NCBI GenBank assembly: GCA_965215565.1
Contig: CBDCDZ010000004.1
Coordinates: 352,001-416,000 of the forward strand
DNA length: 64,000 nucleotides
Origin: Trueperaceae bacterium
Lineage (GTDB): Bacteria > Deinococcota > Deinococci > Deinococcales > Trueperaceae
Reading direction: 5' to 3'
In this document: positions 21,395 to 58,838 of the stretch, piece by piece
Layout of the letters: every line of letters starts with the position of its first letter
How positions within the stretch are numbered: position 1 is the first letter of the stretch
Program-made: the position numbers and the translations under genes
Notes under the pieces: model-generated
Databases searched by the model: none
What the model saw: the letters and a program-made list of their open reading frames with translations, nothing else
Told to the model about the DNA's origin: nothing

Positions 21395-21428
21395 TTTGTG
21401 CAGCGAACGCGCGCAACTCTTACAGAAC
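21395..21428. repeat. 34-bp palindromic module-boundary site S1
   Basis: TTTGTGCAGCGAAC GCGCGC AACTCTTACAGAAC. Confidence 0.8.
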
Positions 21429-21464
21429 GTAAAAACCTACTTTTGCAAGAGGTTTACGGTTTCT

Positions 21465-22730
21465 TTAGCTCTTCCAAGCCAGTATCAGCGCCGCTGTCCA
21501 CGCGAACGTATGCCCGCCCAGACCTTTACCCGTCTTAGGATCATAGTACTCAAAAATCTCCGTCTTCTCCGCGAGCGCGAGGCTGTCCTCTTTGATCTTC
21601 TGCGCCCACACCAAGAAGCCGTTTTCAGTCAGACCCTGATAAAGCATCCAATTGACGTTAATCCAAACTGGGCCGCGCCAGTAGCGTTGCGGTTCAAAAG
21701 CCGGGTCGAGCGGGCTCGTACTCGGCACGAGGTAGCGCACCTCGCCGTTCCAGGTTTCCAATACGTGGAGCATTTTCCGCGTCTGCGCCTCCGTTGCCAC
21801 GCCTGCATAAATCGGCATGAATCCCTCAAACGTGCGCACGCCGATGCGCTCGCCGCTGATGAGGTCTTTGGAGAAGAAAAAAGCCTCCTCTTCGTCCCAT
21901 AGCGATTGCAGAGCAGGTTTACTCAGGTCTAACCAACCTTCGATTTCAACCGTCTCCAGGTCAAAACGTTCGGCTAGCTCGAGCAAATCGCGGTCCGCGC
22001 GGTGCAAGATGGCGTTAAAGGCAACATCGACAACCTTAAAGGGTGACGCTTCATAGATTTTTTCAGGCTCATACTCGTGCTCGCGAAAGAGGTTGACGAG
22101 TCCGATATAGTGCTCGTACGCTTCACTGCCGGGGCGCTGCTCGGCGCTCACGTGCTCCGTGTCGCGGCGCTCACTCGGCAAAGACGCACGCGGCACACGC
22201 GCAAGTGCTTCGTCCCATAAAGGGCTGTTGTCCATCCCGCTCTCCCAAGGATGCAAGAGAGCGACGAGCCCGGTGCCCTTTGGGTCTCTAGCGCGGTAAA
22301 GCCAGCGGTGAAACTCGAGAATCTTAGGAACCAGTGCTTCGGCTTTCTCCTCCGCCAACGCCTTATCCTTGGCATTCTCAACAAGTTCTCGCACCACCGT
22401 CGCGAGAATCGGTGGCTGCGTGATGCCACTGCTCGCTACCTTACCCGAGCGCGACACCGGAACGCCCCACACGTCAGGGCCGGGAAAATAGCCCTTGCTC
22501 TCCTGGTGAAAGGCGATGTGCGGGACCATGCCATCTTGCCACTGCGCGGAGAGAAGCGTTTCAAGCTCAAGCCACGCTCTTTTCTCGTCAAACGTCGCCC
22601 AACCAAGCGCGACAAAGCCTGCGTCCCAGTTCCACTGGTAGGGATACAGGTCTGGCGCAGGGATGGTGTAGGAGCCGTGGTCGTTTGCACGGAGCACCTC
22701 TTCGCACCTCTTGATGAGTTCCGGCTTCAT
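21465..22730 (-). CDS. GH63/MGH1-like glycoside hydrolase (glucosyl/mannosylglycerate hydrolase-like)
   Basis: YPYQWNWD, SGITQPP, HPWESGMDNSP, YWRGPVW.N and FAWTAAL motifs. Confidence 0.9.
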   Translation of the reverse strand: MKPELIKRCEEVLRANDHGSYTIPAPDLYPYQWNWDAGFVALGWATFDEKRAWLELETLLSAQWQDGMVPHIAFHQESKGYFPGPDVWGVPVSRSGKVASSGITQPPILATVVRELVENAKDKALAEEKAEALVPKILEFHRWLYRARDPKGTGLVALLHPWESGMDNSPLWDEALARVPRASLPSERRDTEHVSAEQRPGSEAYEHYIGLVNLFREHEYEPEKIYEASPFKVVDVAFNAILHRADRDLLELAERFDLETVEIEGWLDLSKPALQSLWDEEEAFFFSKDLISGERIGVRTFEGFMPIYAGVATEAQTRKMLHVLETWNGEVRYLVPSTSPLDPAFEPQRYWRGPVWINVNWMLYQGLTENGFLVWAQKIKEDSLALAEKTEIFEYYDPKTGKGLGGHTFAWTAALILAWKS

Positions 22731-24010
22731 TCTTTGACGCCTCCCGCTGTGAGCCCACCGACCAGATACTTCTCAAACCAGAAGAAGAGCACCATAATAG
22801 GCACGGTAACAATGACTGCACCCGCCATCAAGAATTGACGCGGGACCTCTTGCGAATTCAAAGCGACCATCCCTCTCGAGAGCGTAAAAATCTCCGGCGA
22901 GTCCAAAAACATGAAGGCGAACAAAAACTCGTTCCAGGCGATCATAAAAACGTAGAGCCCAACCGAAGCGAGCGCGGGCACACTTAAAGGCAGCGTGATG
23001 CGCCAGATGACCCCTAAGCGCGTGCAGCCGTCAATCATGCCCGCCTCCTCTAAATCTTTAGGCAACGTCTGAAAGTAACTTCGCAGCATATAGAGCGCCA
23101 CGGGAATCGTCGTTGCAGGGTAGACGACCAAAAGACCAGGAAGTGTGTCGCGTAAACCGATCTGAGTGAAAACTGCATAGAGCGGCACGACCAACACGAT
23201 AGCCGGGAACATATAGATGAGCAAAATCGAGCGTGAGAGCATGTCGCGCCCCGGAAAGCGCAGCCGCGTCACGGCGTATGCGCCTAAGACCGCTAGCAAA
23301 AGGGTAATAATCACAGTGGCGACGGCGACTATCGTGCTGTTCAAGATGTAGCGGGCGAAGTCGAAGCGGACCAATACCTCGCGGTAGCCGACCAACAAGT
23401 TACCGAGTCCTTGCGAGAAGTCGATGCTCAAATTGGTGGGATCTTGTAAAAAGGTCGAGCGAGACTTGAGGCTCGAGGCGACCATGAAGTAGAAGGGAAA
23501 GACGACAACCGAGATAAAGAAGATAAAGCCAAAGCCGCGCAAAAGGCGCAAGGTGATGGTTTCATAGATGTTCGAGCCCGCCTCAGCCAAGTTGAGGTCG
23601 CGCAGGCCGTAGCGGGTTAAAAAGGCGGCAGCGCAGAAGGCGAGGGGCGCACCGATGACGCCCCATAAGACGCTGACCTCGCCGAAGCCGAGCGGTCTTA
23701 AACCTGTAAACACGAGCCAGAGCACGCCGACACCCGCGCCCACGGCGAGTGCGAACCAGAGCGGCGTCGTCTGTTTTCGGTTCTCCTCTTTGCGCATCGC
23801 GCTCAGCGTGAGTCCGATCACGAGACCGCTTAGAAGCGCCCAGCCGAGCGGCGTGCTGACCTCTAAGCGGCTAAAAATCACCGCGAAGAATGCCCACAGC
23901 AAGACGGCGGTCAGCGTCGAGAGTGCGCCCATCAGCGCGGCGATGGCGAAGCCCGTTACGGAGGGAAGGTTGCGGGGTGAGGTCTGGGTACGGGTTGCTT
24001 GTGCCATCAC
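22727..24010 (-). CDS. Sugar ABC permease with extra N-terminal TM segments
   Basis: LEEAGMIDG and WNEF motifs. Confidence 0.92.
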   Translation of the reverse strand: MMAQATRTQTSPRNLPSVTGFAIAALMGALSTLTAVLLWAFFAVIFSRLEVSTPLGWALLSGLVIGLTLSAMRKEENRKQTTPLWFALAVGAGVGVLWLVFTGLRPLGFGEVSVLWGVIGAPLAFCAAAFLTRYGLRDLNLAEAGSNIYETITLRLLRGFGFIFFISVVVFPFYFMVASSLKSRSTFLQDPTNLSIDFSQGLGNLLVGYREVLVRFDFARYILNSTIVAVATVIITLLLAVLGAYAVTRLRFPGRDMLSRSILLIYMFPAIVLVVPLYAVFTQIGLRDTLPGLLVVYPATTIPVALYMLRSYFQTLPKDLEEAGMIDGCTRLGVIWRITLPLSVPALASVGLYVFMIAWNEFLFAFMFLDSPEIFTLSRGMVALNSQEVPRQFLMAGAVIVTVPIMVLFFWFEKYLVGGLTAGGVKE

Positions 24011-25269
24011 TCACCCTCCGGGGTATAGCGGAAATAGATGACTATGAAAATTGCTAGGATGAAAAAGAGCACCACCGCCGTCGCCGCGCCCGCGCCGATG
24101 TCTGAGCGTCCAAAGGCGTTGTCATAGACCTGCACGGGCAGCGTCTCCGTCCCGGCTGCGCCGCCAGTCAAGAGGAACACGTCGTCGAACTTGTTAAAGG
24201 TCCAGATGAAGCGCAGCAAGAAGAGCGTCGCGACGATGCCCACGAGCTGCGGCAGGGTGATGTAGCGGAACTTCTGGAACGCGCCCGCACCGTCCACCTC
24301 GGCGGATTCGTAAAGCGCGTCGGGGATGGCTTGAAAGCGGGCGAGCACGAAGAGGAAAGCGAAGGGGAAGTAGCGCCACGCTTCAAAGGCGATGACGGTA
24401 GAAAGTGCAAGCGGGAAGCTAAATGAGAGCCCTAGCAAGCTCACCTCGAAGCTGCGCTGGCTCAGGAATGAGATGGGCTCGTGCATGAGGCCAAACTCTA
24501 AACCCAGCGCGTTCAAGCTGCCGCTAAAGGGGTCTAAAAAGAAGGTCCAGGTAAAGGCAACCGCGATCACTGGCGCGACGTAAGGAAAGAGGAAGAGCCC
24601 GCGCAAGAAGCCCTTGCCGAAGAACTCACCCTGCAAGAGCTGCGCGGCGAAAACGCCTAACAAAATCGAGCCGCCCGTGCCGAAAAGCGTGTACGCGAGC
24701 GTCGTCCACAGCACAGGCCAGAACTCGCGCCCGGAGAGTACGAAGCGGAAGTTTTGAAGTGTGAAGTTGAAGTTCGTCAGCACGTTGCTGGCGTCGCCGC
24801 TCAGAGTCGGTTGGGTTGGGGCACGCTGATCGATACTATCCGCGAAAAATGCTTTACTCGTCTCGAAGGAGAACGCCACGTTCTCGCTGTAGCCGCCCTC
24901 CCACTCGCCAAAGTCGCAGATTAGCGAGCGCCCGTCCACGCTACACGCTTCGGGCAACTCTGTCGGCGTCAGCCCGTCGGCGAGTTGCGCCTCTAACGTC
25001 ACGTTGCGAATCGTCACGTCGGGGCTGCTATTGCGCATCAAGTAGCGCACCTCTAAGGGGTCGCCAGGATTTTTGACGGACACCGCCCGCTCGCGCACCA
25101 CAGGTACAGGTGGGCGCAGGTCGCCCAGTTCGATGTTCTTGAAGCTGATCCAGAAGTTTGCCAGCACCGGGAAGATGACCACGGCAAAAACGATCAAAAA
25201 GGTCGGCGCGAGCATCCAGAAGGCGAGGCGCGCCTCGCGTTGGCTGAGACTTTGTTGTTGCTGGTCCAT
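24007..25269 (-). CDS. Sugar ABC permease with a large extracytoplasmic insertion
   Basis: ESAEVDGA motif; about 120-aa soluble insert after TM1. Confidence 0.92.
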   Translation of the reverse strand: MDQQQQSLSQREARLAFWMLAPTFLIVFAVVIFPVLANFWISFKNIELGDLRPPVPVVRERAVSVKNPGDPLEVRYLMRNSSPDVTIRNVTLEAQLADGLTPTELPEACSVDGRSLICDFGEWEGGYSENVAFSFETSKAFFADSIDQRAPTQPTLSGDASNVLTNFNFTLQNFRFVLSGREFWPVLWTTLAYTLFGTGGSILLGVFAAQLLQGEFFGKGFLRGLFLFPYVAPVIAVAFTWTFFLDPFSGSLNALGLEFGLMHEPISFLSQRSFEVSLLGLSFSFPLALSTVIAFEAWRYFPFAFLFVLARFQAIPDALYESAEVDGAGAFQKFRYITLPQLVGIVATLFLLRFIWTFNKFDDVFLLTGGAAGTETLPVQVYDNAFGRSDIGAGAATAVVLFFILAIFIVIYFRYTPEGE

Positions 25270-25365
25270 CCTCGAGCCTCCTCAGTGAGATTTGAGGTTC
25301 TGTGCCCCGGGCTGTTAGCTAAAAACAAAAGCTAAGATGCTTCGTGCGCGTCTCTATACGCGCAC

Positions 25366-26706
25366 TCAGTTCTGCTGCAGCGCCCGCACCTCTTCCTGAA
25401 TCCTCGAGACCGCCTCCTCTACCGAGAATTCACCATCAGTGAACTGCCGGACGATCTCCGCCATAATCCGCGTGTCGTAAAGCTGCGAGGTCAGCTCGCC
25501 GTAGCCTTGACTGTAGCCCCAGCGCGTGCCCGTTTCCAAGCCTTCGACGAGGTCTTGAATCGTCTCCGCTTCATAGAACTCGCTTAGGGGCGCGCGGCGG
25601 TCCACGCCGACCTCTAGGTTCGACCAGGCGTTGATGAACTGCTCAGAGTTGTCTTGGGTGCCGCGCCGTTGCGGGAACTTACCCTCCGCCGCCATACCGA
25701 GTGTTTGGTCGTACGCTTCGGAGAGGGAATATTCCACGAACTGCCGCGCCGCCTCGAAGTCCGCGTCTACGGTGATGCCAAAGTAGCGCACGTCCGTCCA
25801 ACCTGCGCCCTCTTTATTGCTCGGACCGGATAAGCGAGTCACGAAGCCCGAGTCCTGGGCGAGTTGTGGGCTGGTGGGGTCGTCTACCGCCGTCACGGGC
25901 ACCTCGTTACGCAATCCAGCGAGTTCGTCTAGGATGAAGGGCGACCAGATAATCATGGCGGCGCTGCCCGCGAAGTATAGCTCGCGTGACTGCTGCCAGT
26001 AGAGGTTGCCAGGCGGACTCGCCTCGACCAAGTCTTTGTAGAACTCGAGCGTCTCGGTGAGCTTTTCCGTGTCGAGCGCGATGTTACCCTGGTCGTCCAC
26101 CAAGTTCACGCCGTTGGCGAGCGCGATGTGCTCGAAGACCTGCATCATGTAGCCCTCGCTGGGGTCGGTGGCGGCGACGAAGCCGTACATGTCGGGCGGG
26201 CTATGCAAGGCTTCAATCGCGGCGCGAATAGCTTCGTAACTCGTGGGCGGCTCTAAGCCTGCCTCTTCAAAGAGGTCTTGGCGGTAAACTAGAAGCTGCG
26301 TCCAGCCGTCAACGGGCACGGCAGCATAGCCATCCTCGACTTCAACTAAATTAAGTGCACCCTCGTAAAAGGTGTCCGCACCAAGCGTCTCGATGGCTTC
26401 GGCGGCGCTAAAGGGGTCTAAAATGCCCGCGCTCGCCCAGCCCAAAGTGTAGTTGAGCGGATGGTAAATCACGTCGGGCAGTTCGCCCGCGGCGAAGGCG
26501 GCGGTGACGCGCTCGCCCATCTGGGTTTCGGTTACAGGGATAACCTCGACGCTGACGCCCGTTTGCTCCTGGAAATCTGAAGCGATGTTGCGCTGCACCT
26601 CCAAGCGCTCAGGTTGCTCCTCGGTAGTCCAGAGGACGAGTTGGGCGGAGGCTACACTGCTTGCGAATAGAGCTATGGCGATGGCGACGCTTAGAAACTT
26701 CTTCAC
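25366..26706 (-). CDS. Sugar ABC substrate-binding protein
   Basis: Signal peptide, LPDV and YRQDLF motifs. Confidence 0.93.
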   Translation of the reverse strand: MKKFLSVAIAIALFASSVASAQLVLWTTEEQPERLEVQRNIASDFQEQTGVSVEVIPVTETQMGERVTAAFAAGELPDVIYHPLNYTLGWASAGILDPFSAAEAIETLGADTFYEGALNLVEVEDGYAAVPVDGWTQLLVYRQDLFEEAGLEPPTSYEAIRAAIEALHSPPDMYGFVAATDPSEGYMMQVFEHIALANGVNLVDDQGNIALDTEKLTETLEFYKDLVEASPPGNLYWQQSRELYFAGSAAMIIWSPFILDELAGLRNEVPVTAVDDPTSPQLAQDSGFVTRLSGPSNKEGAGWTDVRYFGITVDADFEAARQFVEYSLSEAYDQTLGMAAEGKFPQRRGTQDNSEQFINAWSNLEVGVDRRAPLSEFYEAETIQDLVEGLETGTRWGYSQGYGELTSQLYDTRIMAEIVRQFTDGEFSVEEAVSRIQEEVRALQQN

Positions 26707-27384
26707 GGTTCACGCTCCTTACATTTTGTTTGGTACAGATTAACAGAAAAAGGCGTGAAGGAATAAATTTTCGGCACGAGGTTCGTACACACTGCGAGCG
26801 TGAATAGAACCTCTTTATGTGTCGCTGCGAATTTCTGGAGACTCTTCGGAGTGCTGTCTTCCGAAGCTTAGGAGAAGCGGGATGTAAGAAGCGTATAAAG
26901 TTATACTAACCTGATTCAAGGATGTCGTAAATTGAGAGCGTCTGAGGGTACGCGCTCACGCGCGGTTTAGATGTCGTACTTTTGACATCTAAACCTCACT
27001 TTAGTATTAGAGTTCTATGGGAGTGGGCTTGGCTTATTTCCTCGGACAGCCGAAGTATACAGCTAAGCGGCTAAGCTCATCTCCTGATTCTCTATAGGTT
27101 GTTGCGACAACTCGAACGTGTTGGGCGTTTCGTAGTTGAGCGAGCTATGCAGTCGTTCGCGGTTGTAATAGACCTCGTTATACTCGAACACTGCGACGCG
27201 AGCGTCATCACGGGTGGCAAAGCGCCCTACTGGGCAGACAAATTCGCGCTTTAAGGTTGACTAAAAGCTCTCGATCACCGCGTTGTCGAAGCACGCCCCT
27301 TTTCCAGCGAAGCTCGGCGGCATCTCATATGCGCGAAGTTCACGCTGATAGGCGTAAGAAGTGTATAGGCTACCTTTGCCGCCT

Positions 27385-28149: not shown

Positions 28150-28183
28150 CTTCTGCGGCAGACGCGCGCGTTAGCTGCAGAAT
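28150..28183. repeat. 34-bp site S2
   Basis: CTTCTGCGGCAGAC GCGCGC GTTAGCTGCAGAAT. Confidence 0.88.
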
Positions 28184-28261: not shown

Positions 28262-28633
28262 ATGGCAACAAGCTTGCTCGACCATACGCTTCTCAGCGCA
28301 CACGACCCCGCAACGGGCCGTTATGACGCCAAACTTTTAGCCGACGTTCTCGCTGTCTCTCAGAAAGAGATGGCAAAGGTTGTTAGCTACACACCGCGAG
28401 GACTCGGCAAAAACCCCGCCTCACCCCACCTACAACCGCAACTGGAGCGGCTCGTCAAGCTCGTCACGACGCTACGCGAGCTTCTCGACGGGGATATGAG
28501 TTTAGTGCGCGTCTGGCTCAAAGCGCCTCATCCGGCCCTAGGAAACGCGAAGCCGCTCGATTATCTCATGGAGGGCCACCTCGACCTTGTCGAAGGGCTC
28601 GTCTACGCGATTGAGACCGGGCAACCTGATTAG
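28262..28633 (+). CDS. Xre/MbcA/ParS-type antitoxin
   Basis: WLKAPHPALG..KPLDYL C-terminal motif; overlaps the RES gene. Confidence 0.88.
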   Translation: MATSLLDHTLLSAHDPATGRYDAKLLADVLAVSQKEMAKVVSYTPRGLGKNPASPHLQPQLERLVKLVTTLRELLDGDMSLVRVWLKAPHPALGNAKPLDYLMEGHLDLVEGLVYAIETGQPD

Positions 28634-29205
28634 TGCTCGATACTGAGAAGCTCGCGCTTGCCCTCCGTAATCTCCAGCCGACGCCTTTAACGCAAACTTT
28701 CTTCCGCATTATCCACGCGAAGTACGCCTCCACTGCTCTTTCCGCAGTGGGATCGTATCGTTTCGGCGGACGCTACAACCCAGCAGGCACGTTCGAGGTG
28801 CTCTACCTAGCCGACAATCCGGTTACAGCTCTGGAAGAGGTCGAAGCGCTGCTGCGCACCAACGACGACCTCAAAGGTGTTAAGGGACCACCGAGGATCG
28901 TGTTGTCAGTCGAGTGCGCACTTCAGCGTGTCGTTCAGCTTGGTGAAAGCGCACTGCGTAACCTCGAGCTTTCAGTTGAGGACGTCACCGGGCCGTGGCG
29001 CGAGAGCTTGAGGCGCAACCAAACCCCAATGACCCACCAGATAGGGCAAATCAGCTTCGAGCGGGGCGACGTTGAGGCGCTGCTCGCACCTTCTGCAAAG
29101 AACCCGGCAACCTCAAACCTCATAGTGTTTCCGGATAGATTGATGGAAGGTAGTGCTTTACGAGTCTTTGATGACTCCGGCATGATTGACGCGCGTCTAC
29201 CATAA
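28633..29205 (+). CDS. RES-domain toxin (NAD+ phosphorylase family)
   Basis: GGRYN, LYLA....TALEE and PSA motifs. Confidence 0.9.
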   Translation: MLDTEKLALALRNLQPTPLTQTFFRIIHAKYASTALSAVGSYRFGGRYNPAGTFEVLYLADNPVTALEEVEALLRTNDDLKGVKGPPRIVLSVECALQRVVQLGESALRNLELSVEDVTGPWRESLRRNQTPMTHQIGQISFERGDVEALLAPSAKNPATSNLIVFPDRLMEGSALRVFDDSGMIDARLP

Positions 29206-29234: not shown

Positions 29235-30119
29235 TCACTGCGGAAAATGTCTCCTGTAGAGCATCTGCCTAGATTCCCCGGATAGGTTGACGTAAAGCTG
29301 CGTCGTGGTAGGCGAGGCGTGCCCGAGGATGGACTGCACCGCTGCGATAGGTGCACCTTGATTTAAGAGCAGCGTGGCGAGGGTGTGGCGCAAGACGTGC
29401 GGCGTCACCTTTTCCTCTAAGCCGCACCGCTCGGTGACCTGCTTGAAAATACGCTGCATCTGTGAGGTGCTGAGGCGCTGATGTTGCAGCGTTTCATCCT
29501 CCTGTCGCCTGCGACGTTTTGTCACGAAGAGTGCTAAAGCGCTGTCCGAGCGACTGTCCAGATACCGCCTGAGCCACAGCGCCGCTTTCGCCCCGAAGTA
29601 CACCTCGCGCTCCTTATTCCCTTTGCCAAGAACCACAACACTCCGGCGTGACCAGTCGAGGTCAATGCGGTCAAGTTGATGAATTTTGCTAACCCTGCAG
29701 CCAGTCGCAAAAAAGAACTCAACGAGGGCGTGTTCCAATAAACTCTCGCAGGCGTCACGCAGTAGTTCTACTTCTTCGACAGATAGAGCCTTGGGTATCC
29801 GTGCGGGCAGGCGCGGCTCTCGCAGTTTCAGTGCAGGATTCCGCTCGAGAATCTCCTCCTCATAGAGTCACTTGAAAAACGCTTTGAGCGCTCGTACCTT
29901 GTTTGCCAAACTCGAGGTCTGCAAGTGCGTTAGGCTCGTGAGGTGAGCGCGCAGGTGCTCGAGCTTAATCGTCTGAACGGCAGTATCTACGTCCAAGTCA
30001 AGAACTAAGCCCTGCAAGTGCAACTTATAGGAGTAGAGCGTCTTGTTGCTATAGCCATCTAGCTTCTGGGCTTTCAGGTACGTGCGGATGCAGCTTACTA
30101 GGGTGAAATCCTCTTTCAT
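29235..30119 (-). pseudogene. Second copy of the XerD-like tyrosine recombinase, nonsense mutant
   Basis: Colinear with 37675-38565; TGG>TGA at 29868-29870; RVSE>RVSK. Confidence 0.93.
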
Positions 30120-30183: not shown

Positions 30184-30217
30184 TTTCTGCGATGACCACG
30201 CGCTGAAAATTTCGCCA
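30184..30217. repeat. Degenerate 34-bp site upstream of the pseudo-recombinase
   Basis: TTTCTGCGATGACC ACGCGC then a decayed arm; 65 bp from the ATG, versus 66 bp for S5. Confidence 0.65.
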
Positions 30218-30314: not shown

Positions 30315-30809
30315 ATGGCTGCAAGTACCCCTCAAGCAACCTTGATTGATACGGATACGTTCTTTCAGACCCTTTCGGCGGATAAACCTAATGTGGTCAA
30401 GCGCAAAACCTTTGAGGCCGTTACGGGGCTCGACTACTACGCGCTTGACACCATCTGGCTCAGACAGGGTGAGATACCCGTGCGTCTCTCAGCTAGAGCG
30501 ATGATGACTAACCTAGGTACGCTCCTGGACCTTCGTAGCAAAGAGGTCGCGTCACTCCTCGGCGTTAGCGAGTCTCGCGTCAGTCGTAACAACCAGGTGA
30601 CGCTCGCCATGCTCGACCGCGCTGAAGGGGTCAGTGATACCTTCTCTAAGGTCGCCGCCGTGCTCGGCTTCGAGCACGCACGTGACTGGTTCAAATCACC
30701 CAATTCGGCTTTGGAGGGCGCAGCGCCTTACACGTTACTGAGCACCCACTATGGGCAAAAGAAGGTCGATAACCTGATCGCCGCACTCCTCAATGGGGCG
30801 GTTATTTGA
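30315..30809 (+). CDS. Xre/MbcA/ParS-type antitoxin
   Basis: WFKSPNSALEG.AP..LL.T..G motif. Confidence 0.88.
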   Translation: MAASTPQATLIDTDTFFQTLSADKPNVVKRKTFEAVTGLDYYALDTIWLRQGEIPVRLSARAMMTNLGTLLDLRSKEVASLLGVSESRVSRNNQVTLAMLDRAEGVSDTFSKVAAVLGFEHARDWFKSPNSALEGAAPYTLLSTHYGQKKVDNLIAALLNGAVI

Positions 30810-31447
30810 TACGAATTTACCGGCTCGCCCACGAGCTGGCGCTCGCCAAAAACCCCCAACCTTTTCAGCCTGCTCCTAGTGAGAACCGCTGGAACTCGGT
30901 CGGCACGCAAGTGGCTTATGGCGGAGAACATATTGCGCTTAGCGCGTTGGAACTCCTGACCTGTTGGGGACACTATCCCAACATGCGTGGTTATCAGCTC
31001 TTTACGCTCGACATTCGCTCTGAAGACGTAGAGGATGTGCTTGATCAGCGTCCTAATATCGACCCAAACGACTACAGTCAAACGCGCCGCTACGGAGATA
31101 GTTGGGTCGAGGAAGGGCGTTCGCTGGCGCTTAAAGTGCCGAGCGTGGTCGTCCCGATGAGCTACAACTACCTCGTCAATCCTGATCACCCTGCTTTCGA
31201 TCCGGAGGCAGTTGCCTTCCGCGGTGCGTTCGAATACGAGGCGAGGATCGCAAAGCTTATCGAGGAAGCGAAAGCAGACCGCCCTTCGAGTCGAAGCTAC
31301 CCTACCTACAGAATCCGTTGTGCGAGAGATGCGCGCGTATGCCGCACAACCTTTGAGGCAGGCAGGGCAAGCTGTGAGCACGTTCTCCTCGGCGCGCCGT
31401 GCAGCTTCGCCGCTTCATACTCTTTTGCGCCTATACTGTCTTCGTGA
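30806..31447 (+). CDS. RES-domain toxin with a read-through C-terminal tail
   Basis: NRWN, ALE, VPSVVVP and NYLVNPDHP motifs; domain ends near 31270 but the ORF crosses site S3. Confidence 0.85.
   Translation: MIRIYRLAHELALAKNPQPFQPAPSENRWNSVGTQVAYGGEHIALSALELLTCWGHYPNMRGYQLFTLDIRSEDVEDVLDQRPNIDPNDYSQTRRYGDSWVEEGRSLALKVPSVVVPMSYNYLVNPDHPAFDPEAVAFRGAFEYEARIAKLIEEAKADRPSSRSYPTYRIRCARDARVCRTTFEAGRASCEHVLLGAPCSFAASYSFAPILSS
31317..31350. repeat. 34-bp site S3
   Basis: GTTGTGCGAGAGAT GCGCGC GTATGCCGCACAAC. Confidence 0.9.
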
Positions 31448-31560: not shown

Positions 31561-32169
31561 ATGACGCCCTGGTTTTTGGTAGGGTTTCTCCTCACTGGGC
31601 TCTCCTTCGCACAAACGAGCTGCTTGCCCTCCTGGCAACCGTCCACAGAGACCCAGAGACTCGAGTGGCAGCGCGAGGTAGACGAGTGGGAGAGATACCT
31701 AGCGCTCCTACCTGGCTACCTGAGCCAGCTTCCCGAGGAGCCCGACATGCAGCTCGTCATGCCCGTAGAAGGTATGGGCGTCGCCGAAGTTACCGACACT
31801 TGGGGTGCGCCGCGTGGGGGCGGGCGCGTGCACGCCGGGCAGGACCTCTTCGCGCCGCGCGGCACGCCCGTGTACTCAGCCACCCCTGGCTTTGTCTGGC
31901 GCATCTCGGAGCGCAAACTCGGGGGCAAAACCGTCACCGTAATAGGCGGAGGCGGTCTACGCTACTACTATGCCCACCTAGAGCGCTACGCCGATGGGCT
32001 GCGCGAGGGGCAAGCGGTTACTACTGACACCTTGCTCGGTTACGTCGGCGCGAGCGGCAACGCCAAGAACACACCGCCGCATCTGCACCTGGGCGTCTCG
32101 AGCGGCAATCCTCTAACGTGTGAGCGGGTTGTCTACGACCCTCTACCTAAACTCGTGGACCGGGAGTAG
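31561..32169 (+). CDS. Secreted M23-family peptidase
   Basis: Signal peptide, HAGQD, YYAHL and HLH motifs. Confidence 0.93.
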   Translation: MTPWFLVGFLLTGLSFAQTSCLPSWQPSTETQRLEWQREVDEWERYLALLPGYLSQLPEEPDMQLVMPVEGMGVAEVTDTWGAPRGGGRVHAGQDLFAPRGTPVYSATPGFVWRISERKLGGKTVTVIGGGGLRYYYAHLERYADGLREGQAVTTDTLLGYVGASGNAKNTPPHLHLGVSSGNPLTCERVVYDPLPKLVDRE

Positions 32170-32200: not shown

Positions 32201-32234
32201 GTTGTGCGTGTGATGCGCGCATCTCGTGCACAAC
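32201..32234. repeat. 34-bp site S4
   Basis: GTTGTGCGTGTGAT GCGCGC ATCTCGTGCACAAC. Confidence 0.9.
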
Positions 32235-32281: not shown

Positions 32282-32545
32282 TTAACGAAGTCTCAAAAGC
32301 TCTCGCACGCGCTGGTGCGGCAGGGCGTGCGCAGTCCGCCCCTCCGCACCCATGGTGGTCTTGGCAGCTACGAGAGCGTTGACGATCGCCTCCTCGACCC
32401 CTTGCACAGTCCCTTCGAACAGCGGCGTCATCAGGCCGCTACTCAGCATCCCGAGCGCCGTTACACCCGAGCGCCTCGCCGCGCCGGAGTTCGCGGTTGA
32501 GAACGCCAAGAAGATATCGCCAGAGGTGTGGGCGCCGTAGCTGCG
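32282..32545 (-). pseudogene. C-terminal fragment of a DmpA/P1 peptidase
   Basis: SGDIFLAFST and VEEAIVNALVAA motifs. Confidence 0.8.
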
Positions 32546-32598
32546 GAAGAGTTGCGAGCGCCTGACGCACAAGGTTAGCTTTGAGAACCTCAGAAGGT

Positions 32599-33803: not shown

Positions 33804-33837
33804 GCTGTGCCGCTGTTTTGCGTGCCGGTCGCGTAAA
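33804..33837. repeat. Candidate degenerate 34-bp site upstream of the nuclease gene
   Basis: GCTGTGCCGCTGTT TTGCGT GCCGGTCGCGTAAA; arms fit, core diverged. Confidence 0.4.
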
Positions 33838-37575: not shown

Positions 37576-37609
37576 GCTGTGCGGCGAACGCGCGCAACAG
37601 CCGTAGAAG
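37576..37609. repeat. 34-bp site S5, 66 bp upstream of the intact recombinase
   Basis: GCTGTGCGGCGAAC GCGCGC AACAGCCGTAGAAG. Confidence 0.88.
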
Positions 37610-37674
37610 CCCATTACTTCCCCAAGAACGATTCAACTTAAACCTCCGTGCAGACTACAGATCGGAGGTTTTTC

Positions 37675-38565
37675 ATGGACAAACAAGAAGCATCCACTTT
37701 GGCAAGCTGCGTTCAGACGTACTTAAAAGCCCGAAAGTTGGACGGCTACAGCGATAAAACGCTCTACTCCTATAGACTGCATCTGAATCATTTAGCCGCA
37801 GATTTAGGTGATGCTACTCCTATTAGCATGGTTAAGCTCGAGCACCTCCGCACCCACCTCACCAGCCTGACGCACCTGCAAACCTCGAGCCTAGCGAACA
37901 AGGTTCGCGCCCTTAAAGCGTTTTTCAAGTGGCTTTACGAGGAAGAGGTGTTGGAGCGTAACCCCGCGTTGAAGCTGAGGGAGCCGCGCTTGCCAGCTAG
38001 AATACCCAAAGCGCTCTCAGTTGAAGAAGTGGAGCTGCTGCGTGACGCCTGCGAGAGTTTATTGGAGCACGCCCTAGTTGAGTTCTTTTTTGCGACTGGC
38101 TGCAGGGTTAGCGAAATTCATCAACTGGACCGTATCGACCTCGACTGGCTGCGCCGGAGCGTCGTGGTCCTCGGCAAGGGCAACAAGGAGCGTGAGGTGT
38201 ACTTCGGGGCGAAGGCGGCGCTGTGGCTCAAGCGCTACTTGGACAACCGCTCAGACAACACTTTAGCACTGTTCGTCACGAAGCGACGGAGACGTCAGCA
38301 TAGCGGGACTTTAGAACATCAGCGCCTGAGCACCTCGCAAATGCAGCGCATCTTTAAGCGGGTCGCTAAGCGGTGCGAGTTGGAGGAGAAAGTGACGCCG
38401 CACGTGTTGCGCCATACACTCGCCACGCTGCTTCTCAATCAAGGTGCGCCCATCGCTGCCGTGCAATCCATTCTCGGGCACGCCTCACCCACGACTACGC
38501 AGCTCTACGTCAACCTATCCGGGGAATCAAGGCAGATGCTCTATAGGAGGCACTTCCCGCAATGA
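37675..38565 (+). CDS. XerD-like tyrosine recombinase, 296 aa, intact
   Basis: RBS GGAGG; N-terminal SAM-like domain; TGCRVSE, GKGNKER, HVLRH, LGH and TTQLY catalytic set complete. Confidence 0.95.
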   Translation: MDKQEASTLASCVQTYLKARKLDGYSDKTLYSYRLHLNHLAADLGDATPISMVKLEHLRTHLTSLTHLQTSSLANKVRALKAFFKWLYEEEVLERNPALKLREPRLPARIPKALSVEEVELLRDACESLLEHALVEFFFATGCRVSEIHQLDRIDLDWLRRSVVVLGKGNKEREVYFGAKAALWLKRYLDNRSDNTLALFVTKRRRRQHSGTLEHQRLSTSQMQRIFKRVAKRCELEEKVTPHVLRHTLATLLLNQGAPIAAVQSILGHASPTTTQLYVNLSGESRQMLYRRHFPQ

Positions 38566-38626: not shown

Positions 38627-38896
38627 ATGGACGCAGCCGCGCTACCCCACCTACCTAAGCTTACAGAGTTGCCGATAAGTCTGCCCACTGACGGTGCGAT
38701 CAATATCGAGATTGTTCAAGGTGTACCTACCTTTCGAGCTTCAACTGCCGTGGTGGGTAGGATCGAGCAGCTCCTCAAGAAAGAGCAAGAAAAGGGGTTG
38801 AGCGTCTCTGAAGCGGATGAACTGGCTCAGTATGAAGAGGTCGATGACTACCTCAGCCATCTGAACCGCGTCGTTTGTAATTTGCAGAGCGCTTAG
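38627..38896 (+). CDS. Small hypothetical protein, partner of the HNH gene (antitoxin-like)
   Basis: Own TACAAT and AGGAG; RIEQLL.K.....LS..E..EL..Y pattern. Confidence 0.7.
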   Translation: MDAAALPHLPKLTELPISLPTDGAINIEIVQGVPTFRASTAVVGRIEQLLKKEQEKGLSVSEADELAQYEEVDDYLSHLNRVVCNLQSA

Positions 38897-38903
38897 CGCG
38901 GGA

Positions 38904-39469
38904 GTGGCGCGACCTAAAGTACCCATCGCTCTAAGAACCGAAGTCAGAGAGCGCGCAAAGTCATTATGCGAGTACTGCCACACCGACGAGACGTGGCAGT
39001 ACGTTCCTTTTACTATCGACCACGTTGTTCCGGTCAGTCTAGGTGGTTCTATAGCAGGAGAGAACCTTGCACTTGCCTGTTTCCACTGCAATCGGTACAA
39101 GGGCGATGCGACTCAGGCTACTGACTCTTCTACGGGTCAAACCGCGCAACTATAGCAGGTATCATCTGGTTTGAGCCAATCTCACACGATAGAACAACGG
39201 CTAGCACGCACATTGTCGGATGATATCTGCGCTATTTCAGTCCAATACTTTTGATAACCGCTATATTTAACCCGAGAACGCAGCGCTGGGCAGAGCACTT
39301 CATCTGGTCGAGCGACAAGCTACGAATCGTTGCGTTGACAGCTACAGGTAGAGCGACATTGCGTGCCTTGAATCTCAACCGTGAGCGGGTACTGCGCATA
39401 CGCGAAGCGGATGTCGCTGTTGGACAGCATCCACCTCATGACGACCCGGTACAGAGTAAAGAGGTTTAG
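38904..39469 (+). pseudogene. HNH endonuclease interrupted by a MITE
   Basis: CEYC, IDHVVP, NL..AC..CN; continues LFNPRTQRWAEHF after removing 39153-39265. Confidence 0.92.
39153..39263. mobile_element. 111-bp MITE with TA duplication
   Basis: TIR TAGCAGGTATCA / TGATAACCGCTA (10/12); removal restores CAA CTA TTT AAC CCG. Confidence 0.9.
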
Positions 39470-39471: not shown

Positions 39472-39505
39472 GCTATGCGCGTGATGTGCGCGTTAAGCGC
39501 AGAAG
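39472..39505. repeat. 34-bp site S6
   Basis: GCTATGCGCGTGAT GTGCGC GTTAAGCGCAGAAG, 2 bp after the HNH stop. Confidence 0.85.
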
Positions 39506-39532: not shown

Positions 39533-39970
39533 CTAGGCTCCGTCTTTACTCTCCAGCCCCTTATAACATTTTGTTAGCAGCGCACACGCTTGCTCGATCT
39601 CCACTTGTGTCAGCTCCCGCGTCATCCGCTTTTCAACCTCAGCTACCAAACTGTGAGCATGTTCCAAGAGCGCTTGCCCCTCAGCAGTCGGTTTCACCCG
39701 CTGAATACGTCCATGCTCGGGGTGCGGCGAGCGCTCTAGCAGCGCGCCACGCTCAAGCCCGATCACGATCTGGTACATAGTCTGAGGTGTTACGAAACAG
39801 CGGCGAGCAAGTTCGGCATTTGAGAGCCCCTGCTCCTTCACCAGCTCGCCCAACGCGGCGTACTGCGGGGTCGTAAGGTCTAGTGTCGCGAGCGCTGCAT
39901 CCATGTTGCTGCGCAGCGCCGACTGAGCGCGCTTGAGGAGATAGCCGAGAGGATCAGAGGTCAGGTTCAT
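39533..39970 (-). CDS. MarR-family regulator
   Basis: LTTPQY..L, SNAELAR..VTPQ and T.EG motifs. Confidence 0.93.
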   Translation of the reverse strand: MNLTSDPLGYLLKRAQSALRSNMDAALATLDLTTPQYAALGELVKEQGLSNAELARRCFVTPQTMYQIVIGLERGALLERSPHPEHGRIQRVKPTAEGQALLEHAHSLVAEVEKRMTRELTQVEIEQACALLTKCYKGLESKDGA

Positions 39971-39982
39971 GGCTTGGCATTA

Positions 39983-40028
39983 TATCAGGGTACTGATAAT
40001 CTAGCTACAAGTTATCAGGGTACTGATA
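39983..40028. promoter_or_regulatory. Two identical palindromic operators, probably for the MarR
   Basis: TATCAGGGTACTGATA at 39983-39998 and 40013-40028 between divergent genes. Confidence 0.85.
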
Positions 40029-40043
40029 AATAGGAGGTCAAGA

Positions 40044-40418
40044 ATGAATGTAAAAACGAAGGTTGACGGTCCCGACTTCATTGCGCTACAATGGCGCGAT
40101 TTGGACCCTGGCAAACGTTTCTACCACGAGACGCTAGGGCTAGCACTCGCCCCGCAGAGCCCGCCTGGTGCAGTTGTTTTCGCTACCGAGCATATCACCT
40201 TTGCCGTGCGGACGCCGCTCGTCAATCTAGACCTCACCCCACATCGGGGTTATGGCGTGGCACTCTGGTTCAAGGTAGACGACAGCGCGAAGCTACGTGA
40301 CCATCTGGTTGACAAGGGGGTTGAGGTCACGTCGGACCTAGTAGACGGTCCCTTTGGCAAGACCTTTTCCATCCGGGACCCTGAGGGTTACCTCATCACC
40401 CTTCACGACTGTGGCTGA
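40044..40418 (+). CDS. VOC/glyoxalase family protein
   Basis: FY..TLGL and GPFGKTFSIRDPEGY motifs. Confidence 0.92.
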   Translation: MNVKTKVDGPDFIALQWRDLDPGKRFYHETLGLALAPQSPPGAVVFATEHITFAVRTPLVNLDLTPHRGYGVALWFKVDDSAKLRDHLVDKGVEVTSDLVDGPFGKTFSIRDPEGYLITLHDCG

Positions 40419-40863
40419 GGCGCATTACTGGGTCAACACAGTGTCGCGCGATCACGTATGGGCAGGGGTCGAGGGCGGCTTCACCCAAGCGGATCACGGC
40501 AAGCGCACACGCCTCGAGCGTCTAAGAAGAGGGAACATGCTGATTTTCTACTCTCCTAGAACTGCTTTTAGGGGTGGGGAGGTGCTGCAGGCGTTTACCG
40601 CCTTGGGCGAAATCATAGACAACGAGCCCTATCAAGTCGAGATGACGTCCGACTTTCATCCCTGGCGACGTAAGGTGAGCTTCGAAGGGGTGAAAGAAGC
40701 ACCGGTACGTCCTTTACTAGAAGACCTTACCTTCGTTACTGATAAACGGAAGTGGGGCTTCCCCTTTCGGCGCGGGCTCTTCGAGATCAGCCCGCAGGAC
40801 TTCGAGCGGATCGCTAAGGCGATGGGCGCACAGGTCGAGATGCCAGCACAGCTATTCGGTTGA
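40411..40863 (+). CDS. EVE-domain protein
   Basis: YWVNTVSRDHV..GV.GGF.QA.HGK and FRRGLFEI...DF motifs. Confidence 0.88.
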   Translation: MAEAHYWVNTVSRDHVWAGVEGGFTQADHGKRTRLERLRRGNMLIFYSPRTAFRGGEVLQAFTALGEIIDNEPYQVEMTSDFHPWRRKVSFEGVKEAPVRPLLEDLTFVTDKRKWGFPFRRGLFEISPQDFERIAKAMGAQVEMPAQLFG

Positions 40864-40872: not shown

Positions 40873-40906
40873 CTTCTGCGACTAACACGCGCGGTTGACG
40901 CATTGC
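40873..40906. repeat. 34-bp site S7
   Basis: CTTCTGCGACTAAC ACGCGC GGTTGACGCATTGC, 9 bp after the EVE stop. Confidence 0.85.
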
Positions 40907-41588: not shown

Positions 41589-41622
41589 GCTGTGCAGCAG
41601 ACGCGCGCGTCTCTTGCAGAGG
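41589..41622. repeat. 34-bp site S8
   Basis: GCTGTGCAGCAGAC GCGCGC GTCTCTTGCAGAGG. Confidence 0.88.
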
Positions 41623-54107: not shown

Positions 54108-54141
54108 CTTCTGCGACGAACGCGCGCAACTGTTGCGTTAG
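54108..54141. repeat. 34-bp site S9
   Basis: CTTCTGCGACGAAC GCGCGC AACTGTTGCGTTAG; overlaps the GNAT stop codon. Confidence 0.85.
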
Positions 54142-54773
54142 CGCATCTCTTGTACAGGTCGCCACATGAACCAGAAGGGCGGTCCGCCGGGTAGCAGGCT
54201 CTCCTCATAGCGGATAATGTTGAAGCCGTGCTTTTCGTAGAGCCGCACATTAGACTCGAGCATCGTCTCCAAGTAGCAGCCATATCCGGTTCTCTCGCTC
54301 CGCCCGAGCCCTTCACGAACTAGATACGATCCAACCCCCTGCCCTTGCTTTTCTTTAATAACACCTAGCACGACCAGATACCAATGAGGCTCCTTAGGGT
54401 GGGCGACGTCGATCACGCTGCCCAGCTTGGCAAGGCGAGGAAAAGCCCGCGGGTCGGCAAGGGCGATACGTAGGAGCGGTAAGGCGGCGCGCACCTGTCG
54501 TCGCAGGGTCATCACCGCGTGACCCGGAGGCAGCCACACCGCTACACCGGCAATACGGTCGTCCTCGAGCGCGACGCTTACGTGTCCGTACCATAGGGCG
54601 TCCGTGAGGGCGACTCGAAAAAAAGCGGGCAGTAGCCTTTTGCGCTTCGCCTTATCAGACCAAACACTCATAAACTGGGGAGCGTCATAGAAGCTCTCAG
54701 CTAAGACCGCTGCGGTCTCGTCTAAGCGCGAACGGTCTGAGAGGTCGAGTATCTGGATGGATGATGGGGTCAT
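54138..54773 (-). CDS. GNAT-family N-acetyltransferase
   Basis: HWYL..LGV...QGQGVG, YLET and NV.LYEKHGF motifs. Confidence 0.93.
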   Translation of the reverse strand: MTPSSIQILDLSDRSRLDETAAVLAESFYDAPQFMSVWSDKAKRKRLLPAFFRVALTDALWYGHVSVALEDDRIAGVAVWLPPGHAVMTLRRQVRAALPLLRIALADPRAFPRLAKLGSVIDVAHPKEPHWYLVVLGVIKEKQGQGVGSYLVREGLGRSERTGYGCYLETMLESNVRLYEKHGFNIIRYEESLLPGGPPFWFMWRPVQEMR

Positions 54774-54867: not shown

Positions 54868-54901
54868 TTAGTGCGACAGACGCGCGCGACTCTCGCATTG
54901 C
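54868..54901. repeat. 34-bp site S10
   Basis: TTAGTGCGACAGAC GCGCGC GACTCTCGCATTGC. Confidence 0.88.
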
Positions 54902-54993: not shown

Positions 54994-55386
54994 ATGACCG
55001 TCCAACAGTTAGTTCAAGGCAACAGCACGGAGCGCATTGCAGCAGTTCGCGAAGGACTCTCCTTCGAGAGCTTCGTCACGCTGCGTGAAGCCTTAGACGT
55101 GGGTACAGATGAGCTCGCTCAGCTTTTGGGCATTCCCCGTCGCACGCTGACCAAGCGGCAGAGCGAGGGCGTCTTCAAGCTTGCCGAGAGCAACGCCATC
55201 AGCCGGGTGGCTCGCGTGTACAAGGAAACGCTCGACTTCTTCAGTGATGAGGCAGACACGCTGAGATGGCTTAAAACGCCTCTGCCCGCGCTTGGCGGCG
55301 CACCTTTAAGCTTACTTGATACCGATCCAGGCGCTGACGCGGTGAGTACACTCCTCACTCAGCTCGCTTGGGGCATCTATCCTTGA
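54994..55386 (+). CDS. Xre/MbcA/ParS antitoxin
   Basis: VREGL, LGIPRRTL.KR and WLKTPLPALGG.PLSLLDT motifs. Confidence 0.93.
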   Translation: MTVQQLVQGNSTERIAAVREGLSFESFVTLREALDVGTDELAQLLGIPRRTLTKRQSEGVFKLAESNAISRVARVYKETLDFFSDEADTLRWLKTPLPALGGAPLSLLDTDPGADAVSTLLTQLAWGIYP

Positions 55387-55838
55387 TCGTCGCTTGGCGG
55401 CTCACCCACGAGCGCTTCAAAGACCAAGCAGTAAGCGGTAACGGTGGGCTGTTCGCCCCCGGACGTTGGCATAGCCAAGGAAAACGAATTGTATATAGCT
55501 CAAGCAGCTTGGCGCTTGCCACGCTCGAGCTGTTCGTGAACTTGCAGAACAAGCGGCAGCTCGCCCACTATGTCAAGAGCCGAATAGAGATTCCTCAAGA
55601 GCTTACCGAAACCCTAGAGGAAGATGCTCTAAGGACGTTTTTACGGGCTCCCGACCAGTTTGACAGCCGTGGCTACGGCGACTCGTGGCTCGCTGGGGAG
55701 CGAAGCTGTGTACTCCAGGTTCCGAGTCGGGTGGTACCGCAGGAATGGAACTACCTCATCAACCCATTGCACACAGATTTCGAGAAGATCGTCGCCTCGA
55801 CTAGCCTATACGAGGTGGATGAGCGCCTTTTGCTATAA
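55383..55838 (+). CDS. RES-domain toxin
   Basis: GRWH, YSS.SLALATLE, VPS.VVP and NYLINPLH motifs. Confidence 0.93.
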   Translation: MIVAWRLTHERFKDQAVSGNGGLFAPGRWHSQGKRIVYSSSSLALATLELFVNLQNKRQLAHYVKSRIEIPQELTETLEEDALRTFLRAPDQFDSRGYGDSWLAGERSCVLQVPSRVVPQEWNYLINPLHTDFEKIVASTSLYEVDERLLL

Positions 55839-55851
55839 AGCAGTAGTCAGA

Positions 55852-55885
55852 GTTGTGCGTGAAACGCGCGCGTCACACGCAGAAG
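55852..55885. repeat. 34-bp site S11
   Basis: GTTGTGCGTGAAAC GCGCGC GTCACACGCAGAAG, 13 bp after the RES stop. Confidence 0.9.
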
Positions 55886-57689: not shown

Positions 57690-57782
57690 GTTAAACTCCC
57701 TTCGTGGCTAAGCATTATCGGCTTAAAGCCGCCTTGATAAAAGTCGTGACGGCATACCGGTATAGCGACTAACAGGCTAAAT

Positions 57783-58646
57783 ATGACGGAGACCTTCACA
57801 GACGACAACGCACTAGGAGCCTACCTCAGAAATCGTCGCGCCCGGCTCGACCCCGCCGACTTTGGCTTTTCCGGGCGGCGGCGGACGCCCGGGCTGCGGC
57901 GCGAAGAGGTCGCCCAACGTGCTAACCTCAGCGTCACCTGGTACACCTGGCTCGAGCAGGGGCGCGGCGGCACACCCTCGGCTAACGTACTCGAGCGGCT
58001 TGCCCGCGCCCTGGTGCTGACGCCCGCCGAGCGGGAACATCTCTTTTTATTAGCGCAGCACCGACCACCCGAAGTCCGCTGCCAGGTCGGGGAGGTCACG
58101 CCACATCTTCAGCGGGTACTCGACGCACTCGAATTCAGCCCAGCCCTTGTCAAGACCCCGACCTGGGATGTGCTCGCCTGGAACCGCGCGGCGGCGGCGG
58201 TGCTAACCGACTACGGCACGCTCGAGGCCGAGGAGCGCAATATCCTCCGCCTCGTCTTTGGAGACCTCCGCGCCCGCGCTGCCAATCCGGGCTGGGAGAG
58301 CAGTGCCCGCTTCGTACTAGCGACGTTTCGCCTGGAGGTGGTCCGCGCCAGGGTCGGTGTCAGCGGGGAGCTGCTGGTTGAGGAGCTGAGCCAGTCGAGC
58401 CCTGAGTTCAGGACGATGTGGCGCGAGAATGAGGTTGGCACATATGGCGAGGGCACCAAGCATCTCGAGCATTCAGAGGCAGGGTCGTTGGCGCTGGACT
58501 ACTCGACCTTCGCCGTTGACGGACAGCCTGGCCTCGGCTTAGTCGTTTTCAATCCGACCACGCCCACAGATGCGGAGCGGGTCCGCTCGCTCGTCAAAGC
58601 GCACGCCGTTGTCTCGGCACGACCATCGGCGTCGCGCCCTAGCTAG
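57783..58646 (+). CDS. XRE HTH plus MmyB-like ligand-binding regulator
   Basis: RRTPGLRREEVA, WLEQGR and SPEF...W motifs. Confidence 0.93.
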   Translation: MTETFTDDNALGAYLRNRRARLDPADFGFSGRRRTPGLRREEVAQRANLSVTWYTWLEQGRGGTPSANVLERLARALVLTPAEREHLFLLAQHRPPEVRCQVGEVTPHLQRVLDALEFSPALVKTPTWDVLAWNRAAAAVLTDYGTLEAEERNILRLVFGDLRARAANPGWESSARFVLATFRLEVVRARVGVSGELLVEELSQSSPEFRTMWRENEVGTYGEGTKHLEHSEAGSLALDYSTFAVDGQPGLGLVVFNPTTPTDAERVRSLVKAHAVVSARPSASRPS

Positions 58647-58804
58647 AACAAGCATCAAGCTCAGTCGGATGTTATACTGGCTCGTCCAGCAAGTTAGAGC
58701 TTCCGAAGGTGTCCAGAAGTTTGGCACTGTTGATGTCATTAGTAAACATCTAGCACAGATGACGATCAATCTGGCCAACTCTCTTCGCTATAATCACCAT
58801 GAAC

Positions 58805-58838
58805 AGGGTGCGATCCGAAGCGACCATTCTCGCGGAAA
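58805..58838. repeat. Candidate degenerate 34-bp site closing the SDR/XRE module
   Basis: AGGGTGCGATCCGA AGCGAC CATTCTCGCGGAAA; arm spacing fits, core diverged. Confidence 0.35.

Follow-up and report, generated by a model that had tools for sequence, protein, structure and literature searches.

In integrons, gene cassettes carry attC hairpins of variable length and stand co-oriented behind a fixed attI/intI platform. The loxP site is built differently, as a 13-8-13 arrangement with exact arms. An IntI-specific insertion in the catalytic domain is described as the mark of integron integrases (PMC8138268), and symmetric-core loxPsym sites are described as recombining in either orientation in the engineered SCRaMbLE system (PMC4691749). 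Here we describe an array of 34-bp sites that divides an island of a Trueperaceae bacterium (phylum Deinococcota) into gene cassettes, one of which encodes a tyrosine recombinase. The stretch of DNA analysed, referred to as the window, comprises 64,000 nucleotides (assembly GCA_965215565.1, contig CBDCDZ010000004.1, positions 352,001 to 416,000). This is a real cassette platform, and its nearest described counterparts are the dif (pdif) modules of Acinetobacter, with a loxPsym-like twist. Published accounts of those modules (PMC12907356, PMC11705084) likewise describe Xer-family tyrosine recombinase chemistry, sites with two arms around 6 bp, toxin-antitoxin and accessory modules, and multi-module arrays on both chromosome and plasmid, where we find a plasmid-size replicon. 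A first-pass annotation of the window had proposed an integron-analogous platform for the capture and shuffling of genes, and this proposal is supported by the clustering of the sites, by breaks in synteny that fall on them and by their co-occurrence, for the most part, with the recombinase across the phylum.

Sites and probable recombinase of a cassette platform

The first-pass annotation listed 11 clear sites and three degenerate ones, with inverted 14-bp arms around a 6-bp core. All 11 are present at the positions claimed (S1 to S11, Table 1) and score 22.7–40.2 bits in a leave-one-out matrix test; we also obtain its count of nine GCGCGC cores among the 11, the exceptions being GTGCGC at 39472 and ACGCGC at 40873. 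The 14-6-14 architecture is sound, with a fixed length of 34 bp, no conservation beyond it and a half-site consensus of approximately (C/G)TT(C/G)TGC(G/A)N(C/G)(A/G/T)(G/A)(A/T)(C/T). The palindrome is looser than had been implied: the two arms of one window site agree at 5–11 of 14 positions, and a generic inverted-repeat scan requiring 11 or more matches in 14 found only one of the 11 sites, the arms being too degenerate. Among the three degenerate copies, the one at 30184 is accepted despite its score of -17 bits because alignments of intact recombinase cassettes extend exactly to its core, the one at 33804 is marginal, and the candidate at 58805 was rejected at -36 bits. The first-pass annotation had passed over one weak copy, at 32540 (16.7 bits). 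The sites had also been said to lie often within 17 bp of a stop codon; this is true of five of the 11, while S3 falls inside a RES reading frame. No site had been seen to the left of tRNA-Ala, and indeed the best score anywhere left of 21395 is 5.9 bits. A scan against Rfam placed no family on the sites and found only a tRNA and the signal recognition particle RNA in the window, and a promoter and terminator scan performed at chance level.

The sites mark where the gene cassettes of the platform are joined, and exchange between arrays and genomes has taken place at the 6-bp core. For the comparison with relatives we used 32 regions (1.29 Mb, 213 sites) from genomes G000, G001, G002 and G005 and loci L003–L005 and L007, which gave 355 alignments of at least 300 bp and hence 695 ends of homology, an end being counted as near a site when it lay within 25 bp of the site centre. 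Alignments end at a site in both copies in 87 of the 695 cases and in one copy in a further 40, against 0.84% of positions that lie so close. The comparison of module order suggested by the first-pass annotation thus reveals shuffled order, with synteny breaking at the sites. The regions contain 167 site-to-site intervals with a median length of 2.1 kb; 38 of them fall in 17 families, among which no neighbour pair recurs. For the window itself, homology to relatives stops at a site on one side or both in the blocks that carry GNAT, Xre-RES, the phosphatases and the recombinase.

The position of the exchange can be narrowed further. We examined the 30 ends where cassette copies are at least 90% identical but border different neighbours. 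Identity there is at background at variable positions of the outer arm (0.23–0.57), compared with 0.90–0.97 in the core and 0.73–1.0 in the inner arm. This drop from core to outer arm places the crossover in the core or at its edge. Four cassette pairs, duplicated within G001 or within G002, are 100% identical and have unrelated flanks, although one pair also shares one outer arm. Separately, we observed site pairs only 11–60 bp apart with no gene between them, which represent empty or collapsed cassettes (L045 2152/2199, L048 6973/7030, L026 5467/5514 and G001 C1:881724/881735).

Arm identity within a site is 8.06, compared with 8.02 for shuffled pairs (p 0.385), and between the two ends of a cassette it is 7.95, compared with 7.93. 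There is no covariation of arms of the hairpin type within sites or between cassette ends, and pairing of arm types is not significant within sites (p 0.19), with p 0.03 for cassette ends. As the arms show neither complementarity nor type pairing, the sites are best understood as double-stranded, with a single class of half-site, each site being a hybrid of its two neighbours. When the core was left unscored, it was nonetheless GCGCGC in 166 of 200 sites and one change away in most of the others.

A matrix scan of the whole genome, as the first-pass annotation had advised, finds clustered sites and not the uniform spread of a repeat or regulatory motif. In the 4.49-Mb genome, 38 sites reach 20 bits or more, 33 on contig C4 and five on the 50-kb contig C2, and the distribution of scores is sharply bimodal. 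With a refined matrix at 14 bits there are 35 matches on C4 and none in two order-3 Markov simulations. The 34 strong sites on this 4.39-Mb contig form seven clusters that together span 104 kb. Arrays therefore extend beyond the window, and most arrays of the genome have no adjacent recombinase gene.

We infer that the acting recombinase is the Xer-like protein encoded at 37675–38565. It combines PF00589 with PF02899/PF13495, that is, a catalytic and a core-binding domain without an arm-binding domain, and alignment to XerD and XerA structures together with motif positions indicates that all six residues of the R-K-H-R-H-Y set are kept. It belongs to none of the named families by their own thresholds. 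The XerC model gives 206 bits (cut-off 335), and no gene of the genome passes the NCBIfam XerD cut-off, for which this recombinase is the best at 199 against 330 bits. The integron integrase model TIGR02249, whose cut-off of 265 bits is likewise passed by no gene in the genome, gives 108.6 bits, matching at model positions 11–179 and 222–299 with the 42 positions between (180–221) covered by 11 residues. A plasmid search and a protein search returned generic names only. Its closest homologues are Trueperaceae proteins (81–90% identity), followed by those of Alicyclobacillaceae, Sulfobacillus and other Bacillota (52–61%) and then of Bacillaceae (41–49%). In seven relative loci (L001–L007) the gene has a site about 100 bp before its start, as it does at S5, in five cases and a second site after it in all seven, with differing passengers. 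Being flanked by sites with changing passengers, the enzyme itself travels as a cassette. An RNA hairpin is predicted over its GGAGG ribosome-binding site; it has z scores of -2.7 to -4.7 in three relatives, is conserved in L001–L007 (9960–10000) and has no Rfam match in the window or in L001. It is likely that this hairpin keeps expression of the recombinase low.

Sites and enzyme largely co-occur across the phylum, as the first-pass annotation had anticipated in suggesting enrichment near homologues of the enzyme. In a set of 41 relatives, pattern matches number 14–68 in each of the four genomes that carry the recombinase and 0–1 in the other 37. Among 251 genomes of the phylum, some of them kin and so not independent, six have 6–68 matches and 245 have 0–2; the recombinase is present in four of the six site-rich genomes, whereas a full-length close relative occurs in one of the 245 others (G360) and a single partial match (49%) in G365. 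The enzyme of G360 is 71% identical, and the 60 kb around it hold 14 arm-only matches compared with 4.6 in shuffles, with cores GCGCTC (three) and CGGCCC (four) on a single strand throughout; a site precedes the gene by 68 bp.

A related system is found in Bacillota. When the Trueperaceae matrix was iterated on 13 Bacillaceae loci, a related 34-bp site emerged with 106 matches, compared with 0–0.33 per locus in shuffles, although the resulting matrix was trained on those same loci. This matrix has no matches in 17 loci of a sister clade with a longer N-terminus or in 27 outgroup loci. The Bacillaceae cores are asymmetric (of 118, GCACCC 24, CTGCCC 23, GCCCCC 18 and GCGCCC 11), and in 13 of 17 loci, one of which has a single site, all cores that can be decided share one direction. 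Loci of the Alicyclobacillaceae type have 59 matches in 12 of 16, and the same procedure applied to 16 control loci gave 14 matches without a common core. In a quick tree, the site-bearing enzymes form one clade of 32 rows (SH-aLRT, the Shimodaira–Hasegawa-like branch test, 96), with the Trueperaceae group nested inside. A strict site pattern occurs in 73 of 121 Bacillaceae-family genomes, and in none with the reversed control; the recombinase is present in 46 of the 121. Within the 13 Bacillaceae loci, 5 of 168 alignment ends fall at a site, nearly all of the alignments being the recombinase gene itself. The symmetric core has likely been derived from directional cores in a system of the Bacillota type. 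In locus L025 (5254–5530) a group II intron has taken the place of one arm of a Bacillaceae-type site, its end coinciding exactly with the boundary of the 6-bp core; in the near-identical locus L026 (5514–5547) the site is intact.

Proposed mechanism and its alternatives

The reading we favour, with a probability of roughly 0.8, is that the cassette-borne Xer-like enzyme recombines any two sites through the palindromic core, such that blocks swap at the core in either orientation. In this scheme, which takes the four subunits, the cuts at core edges and the need for core identity from Cre/lox and Xer chemistry, the recombinase would bind each 14-bp arm on double-stranded DNA, and four subunits would synapse two sites, cut at the core edges and exchange strands across the 6-bp core. 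Identical GCGCGC cores would make any site compatible with any other. Because a palindromic core lacks direction, excision, integration and inversion would all be open to a single pair of sites, as with loxPsym, and Cre/loxPsym would be the closest mechanistic model. The most likely route would be excision of a circle from core to core, followed by its integration at another site, and arrays that have no recombinase gene of their own would be served in trans. Relative orientation is flipped in six of the eight family pairs that are seen in two arrays, and the main open reading frames (ORFs) of neighbouring cassettes lie on the same strand in 73 cases and on opposite strands in 57.

A number of observations weigh against this reading. 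Five of the 200 sites belong to a second core class, CGGGCC, which is asymmetric and occurs alongside GCGCGC sites. All eight orientation pairs include one G002 array, the alignment ends are not independent events, and 129 of the 167 cassettes have no second copy in the regions compared. The sugar-ABC (ATP-binding cassette) block of the window is site-free in two relatives, G001 and G002, such that not every site-to-site interval is a proven cassette. The tree is a quick rather than a careful one, built from 76 of 81 rows with five short matches dropped. Two genomes, G324 (12 matches) and G328 (6), have sites yet no recombinase match at E 1e-10, and in the Bacillaceae family the link is weak, with the pattern present in 34 of 46 genomes that have the recombinase and in 39 of 75 that do not. 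Dozens of sites with identical cores should endanger the chromosome. Finally, the circles and inverted junctions that the first-pass annotation had advised looking for in reads did not appear: the contigs of public runs contain no circle junction and no inversion at a site. In run X1, two low-depth contigs join near S2 with unmatched letters between them, and these are more likely to come from other strains; a search for large rearrangements at lone sites met flanks that are poorly syntenic.

The alternative that survives best, though we consider it clearly the less probable, is that cassettes move not as circles but by two intermolecular crossovers, cointegration followed by resolution, between replicons or chromosome copies. 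It is a live rival because Acinetobacter Xer modules, in the account of PMC11705084, do not excise; that account favours a cointegrate model and describes no excision seen. The presence of sites on the small contig C2 and on G001 C6 is also in keeping with it, and since both routes leave the same product junctions, the two readings overlap in everything except the route. The Acinetobacter flanking sites are, however, described there as mostly inverted with differing central regions, whereas the cores here share one symmetric sequence, which leaves excision open as far as the site is concerned. Arrays also vary in length and content, which is not what one-for-one swaps would produce.

It is unlikely that the sites are true recombination joints at which another enzyme acts, with the recombinase gene merely one passenger cassette among many. 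The two enzyme-less genomes and the weak link in Bacillaceae could be read in this way, and the genome does encode four more tyrosine recombinases. Yet site sequence varies with recombinase clade, the sister clade is site-free, the genome has no XerD above the cut-off, and the gene lies between sites in both Trueperaceae and Bacillaceae. Some sites of the orphan arrays on G324 C2 and G328 C1 end cassettes that are held in common with G001 or G005.

We regard it as very improbable that the sites are transcription-factor operators or repeats of the REP (repetitive extragenic palindromic) type at which breakpoints gather merely because both are intergenic. The arm-spacer-arm shape would suit an operator, and only 34 of the 213 site centres lie inside crude ORFs, but this explanation is largely refuted by the breakpoints on sites and the switch of identity exactly at the core. 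Moreover, the sites frequently come after stop codons and not ahead of starts, they lie in seven clusters rather than dispersed, the cargo has no common pathway, and two arms taken from the same site resemble each other no more than randomly paired arms do. Least credible of all is an atypical integron with attC-like single-stranded hairpin sites: the cassette-array layout and an extra stretch of about 10 residues in the recombinase relative to its Alicyclobacillaceae relatives speak for it, and the shuffled-pair level of arm identity within sites and between cassette ends, the fixed 34-bp length and the 11 residues that alone cover integron profile positions 180–221 speak against it.

Gene content of the window

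The array begins 3 kb past tRNA-Ala and a broken phage-type integrase, which is probably not part of the site system. Just before the array, 19501–20815 consists of two adjoining stretches that are 99.8–100% identical to C4:771686-772320 and C4:1267989-1268669, each of which adjoins or falls within another site cluster; the interval includes a metallo-beta-lactamase-fold gene fused to a transposase fragment.

The cargo of the window comprises three Xre-RES pairs, an M23 peptidase, an ExeM-like nuclease, the MarR/VOC/EVE group, a GNAT gene, phosphatases and remnants of insertion sequences (IS). In the genome's remaining arrays, where 43 of 67 called ORFs were scanned, we found GGDEF/EAL proteins, hydrolases, Fic, Ada, P450 and a serine beta-lactamase fold. 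It is likely that the toxin-antitoxin cassettes stabilise the arrays. The gene labels of the first-pass annotation hold up, except that its 'HNH pair' is a single HNH gene split by a 113-bp repeat. Its cleanly bracketed units are borne out in cases such as MarR/VOC/EVE, which recurs core to core in G001, and not in the case of the sugar-ABC operon, which lacks sites in both G001 and G002 and has therefore either been recruited here or is not a cassette. The interval 21465–26706 may represent the recruitment of a chromosomal operon into the array.

Individual genes show further features at the sites. The second RES frame (30806–31447) is free of stops up to S3 and reads through it; on an X1 contig, a related RES end has its stop just ahead of a site. 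The gene for the ExeM-like nuclease (34003–37422) has a homologue on contig C2 that comes after a strong site. An X3 contig from a second study carries part of the HNH gene in the empty form, lacking the 113-bp repeat, and its match ends at the core of S6. The repeat is TA-flanked, resembles a miniature inverted-repeat transposable element, and is also found at 41753–41867, 26901–27009 and 27529–27632; across the genome its partial copies number well over 100.

Table 1. Sites, genes and other features of the window, in order of position
Feature	Position	Strand	Details
tRNA-Ala and broken phage-type integrase, left edge of island	18237..19369		Other recombinase type
Site S1	21395..21428		Core GCGCGC; matrix score
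Sugar-ABC/glycoside hydrolase operon between S1 and S2	21465..26706	-	Site-free in G001, G002
Site S2	28150..28183		Matrix score; homology to L003 recombinase and Xre-RES cassette stops at its core
Xre/MbcA antitoxin and RES toxin pair	28262..29205	+	Passenger of second recombinase cassette
Second recombinase copy	29235..30119	-	87% identical; in-frame stop
Decayed site upstream of second recombinase copy	30184..30217		-17 bits; positional homology to intact sites
Second Xre-RES pair	30315..31447	+	RES frame crosses S3
Site S3	31317..31350		Matrix score; inside extended RES reading frame 30806-31447
M23 peptidase	31561..32169	+	Alone between S3 and S4
Site S4	32201..32234		Matrix score
Weak site	32540..32573		Core GCGAGC; 16.7 bits; homology end in G002 at most 26 bp away
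Doubtful decayed site before ExeM-like nuclease gene	33804..33837		1.1 bits
Site S5	37576..37609		65 bp before recombinase start; matrix score
Predicted RNA hairpin over ribosome-binding site of recombinase	37640..37671	+	z -3.4
Intact Xer-like tyrosine recombinase	37675..38565	+	296 aa; R144, K168, H243, R246, H269, Y278
Small ORF and HNH nuclease gene	38627..39469	+	Recombinase-cassette passengers; HNH split by 113-bp repeat (39151-39264)
Site S6	39472..39505		Core GTGCGC; matrix score
MarR/VOC/EVE cassette between S6 and S7	39533..40863		97% core-to-core copy with different neighbours in G001 (C1:3462431-3463835)
Site S7	40873..40906		Core ACGCGC; matrix score
Site S8	41589..41622		Matrix score
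Site S9	54108..54141		Matrix score; phosphatase-block homology to G001 stops here
GNAT cassette between S9 and S10	54138..54773	-	89% copy in G002 stops at site on S10 side
Site S10	54868..54901		Matrix score
Xre-RES cassette between S10 and S11	54994..55838	+	87% copy in G001 with a site at its start and a decayed site at its end
Site S11	55852..55885		Matrix score

Comparison with known systems

In the literature we found no description of the site or of the recombinase clade; subscription journals were outside the coverage, so a prior description is possible, above all of the Bacillus form. Searches for short site motifs in the text of papers returned only primers and unrelated text. The bcr elements are described as dispersed repeats of 100–400 bp restricted to the B. 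cereus group (PMC6542083), and identity with these or with REP elements was rejected by description, as the present sites are 34 bp long, clustered and found in Deinococcota and several Bacillota families. The DUF1874 motif is described as a structured motif in consecutive intergenic regions (PMC5737381); it has no Rfam match in the window or in L001, L025, L027 and L068, its accession in Rfam 15 being unconfirmed.

On balance we incline slightly towards an undescribed class of cassettes, apart from integrons and dif modules, which has its own cassette-borne recombinase and is widespread in Bacillota, and of which the Trueperaceae form, having evolved a palindromic core, would be a natural SCRaMbLE that admits any cassette to any site in either orientation and can recruit chromosomal operons. 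There is a fair chance that the system, which may be called a recombinase-driven cassette array, deserves a class of its own. One recombinase clade and one site family would provide a signature by which hundreds of mobile cassettes could be searched out, in Deinococcota and, as the directional version, in no fewer than 73 of the 121 Bacillaceae-family genomes sampled; annotation aimed at integrons and IS would not flag them. The Bacillota-type relatives have asymmetric, co-oriented cores, whereas the Trueperaceae have a symmetric core and flipped cassettes; with directional and symmetric versions of one system at hand, the role of core asymmetry is directly testable. A 296-residue recombinase that tolerates degenerate arms could also become a tool for genome engineering.

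In conclusion, the system resembles integrons in how it works and dif modules in how it is built, but by the features that define each it is neither. With integrons it shares shuffled cassette arrays with site-precise joints, a tyrosine recombinase and orphan arrays that lack the enzyme. It differs from them in that the recombinase lacks the IntI insertion and is itself a cassette, inside the array between ordinary sites; in that the sites are of fixed length, show no hairpin covariation and are hybrids of two neighbours' arms; and in that the cassettes are larger (the median of 2.1 kb), often multi-gene and present in both orientations. The dif and pdif sites, as described, are 28 bp long with two 11-bp arms for XerC and XerD, have varied central regions that set compatibility and depend on host XerCD under FtsK control, whereas here a 34-bp site with one class of half-site and one near-invariant palindromic core is probably served by a dedicated, cassette-borne recombinase. 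The likeness to loxPsym lies in the many symmetric-core sites of which any pair, in either orientation, could be joined, as described for the engineered sites (PMC4691749). The present case differs from loxPsym in being natural, in its Xer-like enzyme and degenerate 14-6-14 arms, and in the confinement of its sites to accessory islands. Multi-site shuffling through symmetric cores has so far been an engineered idea; a natural example shows that such a system can persist and raises the question of how it is restrained.

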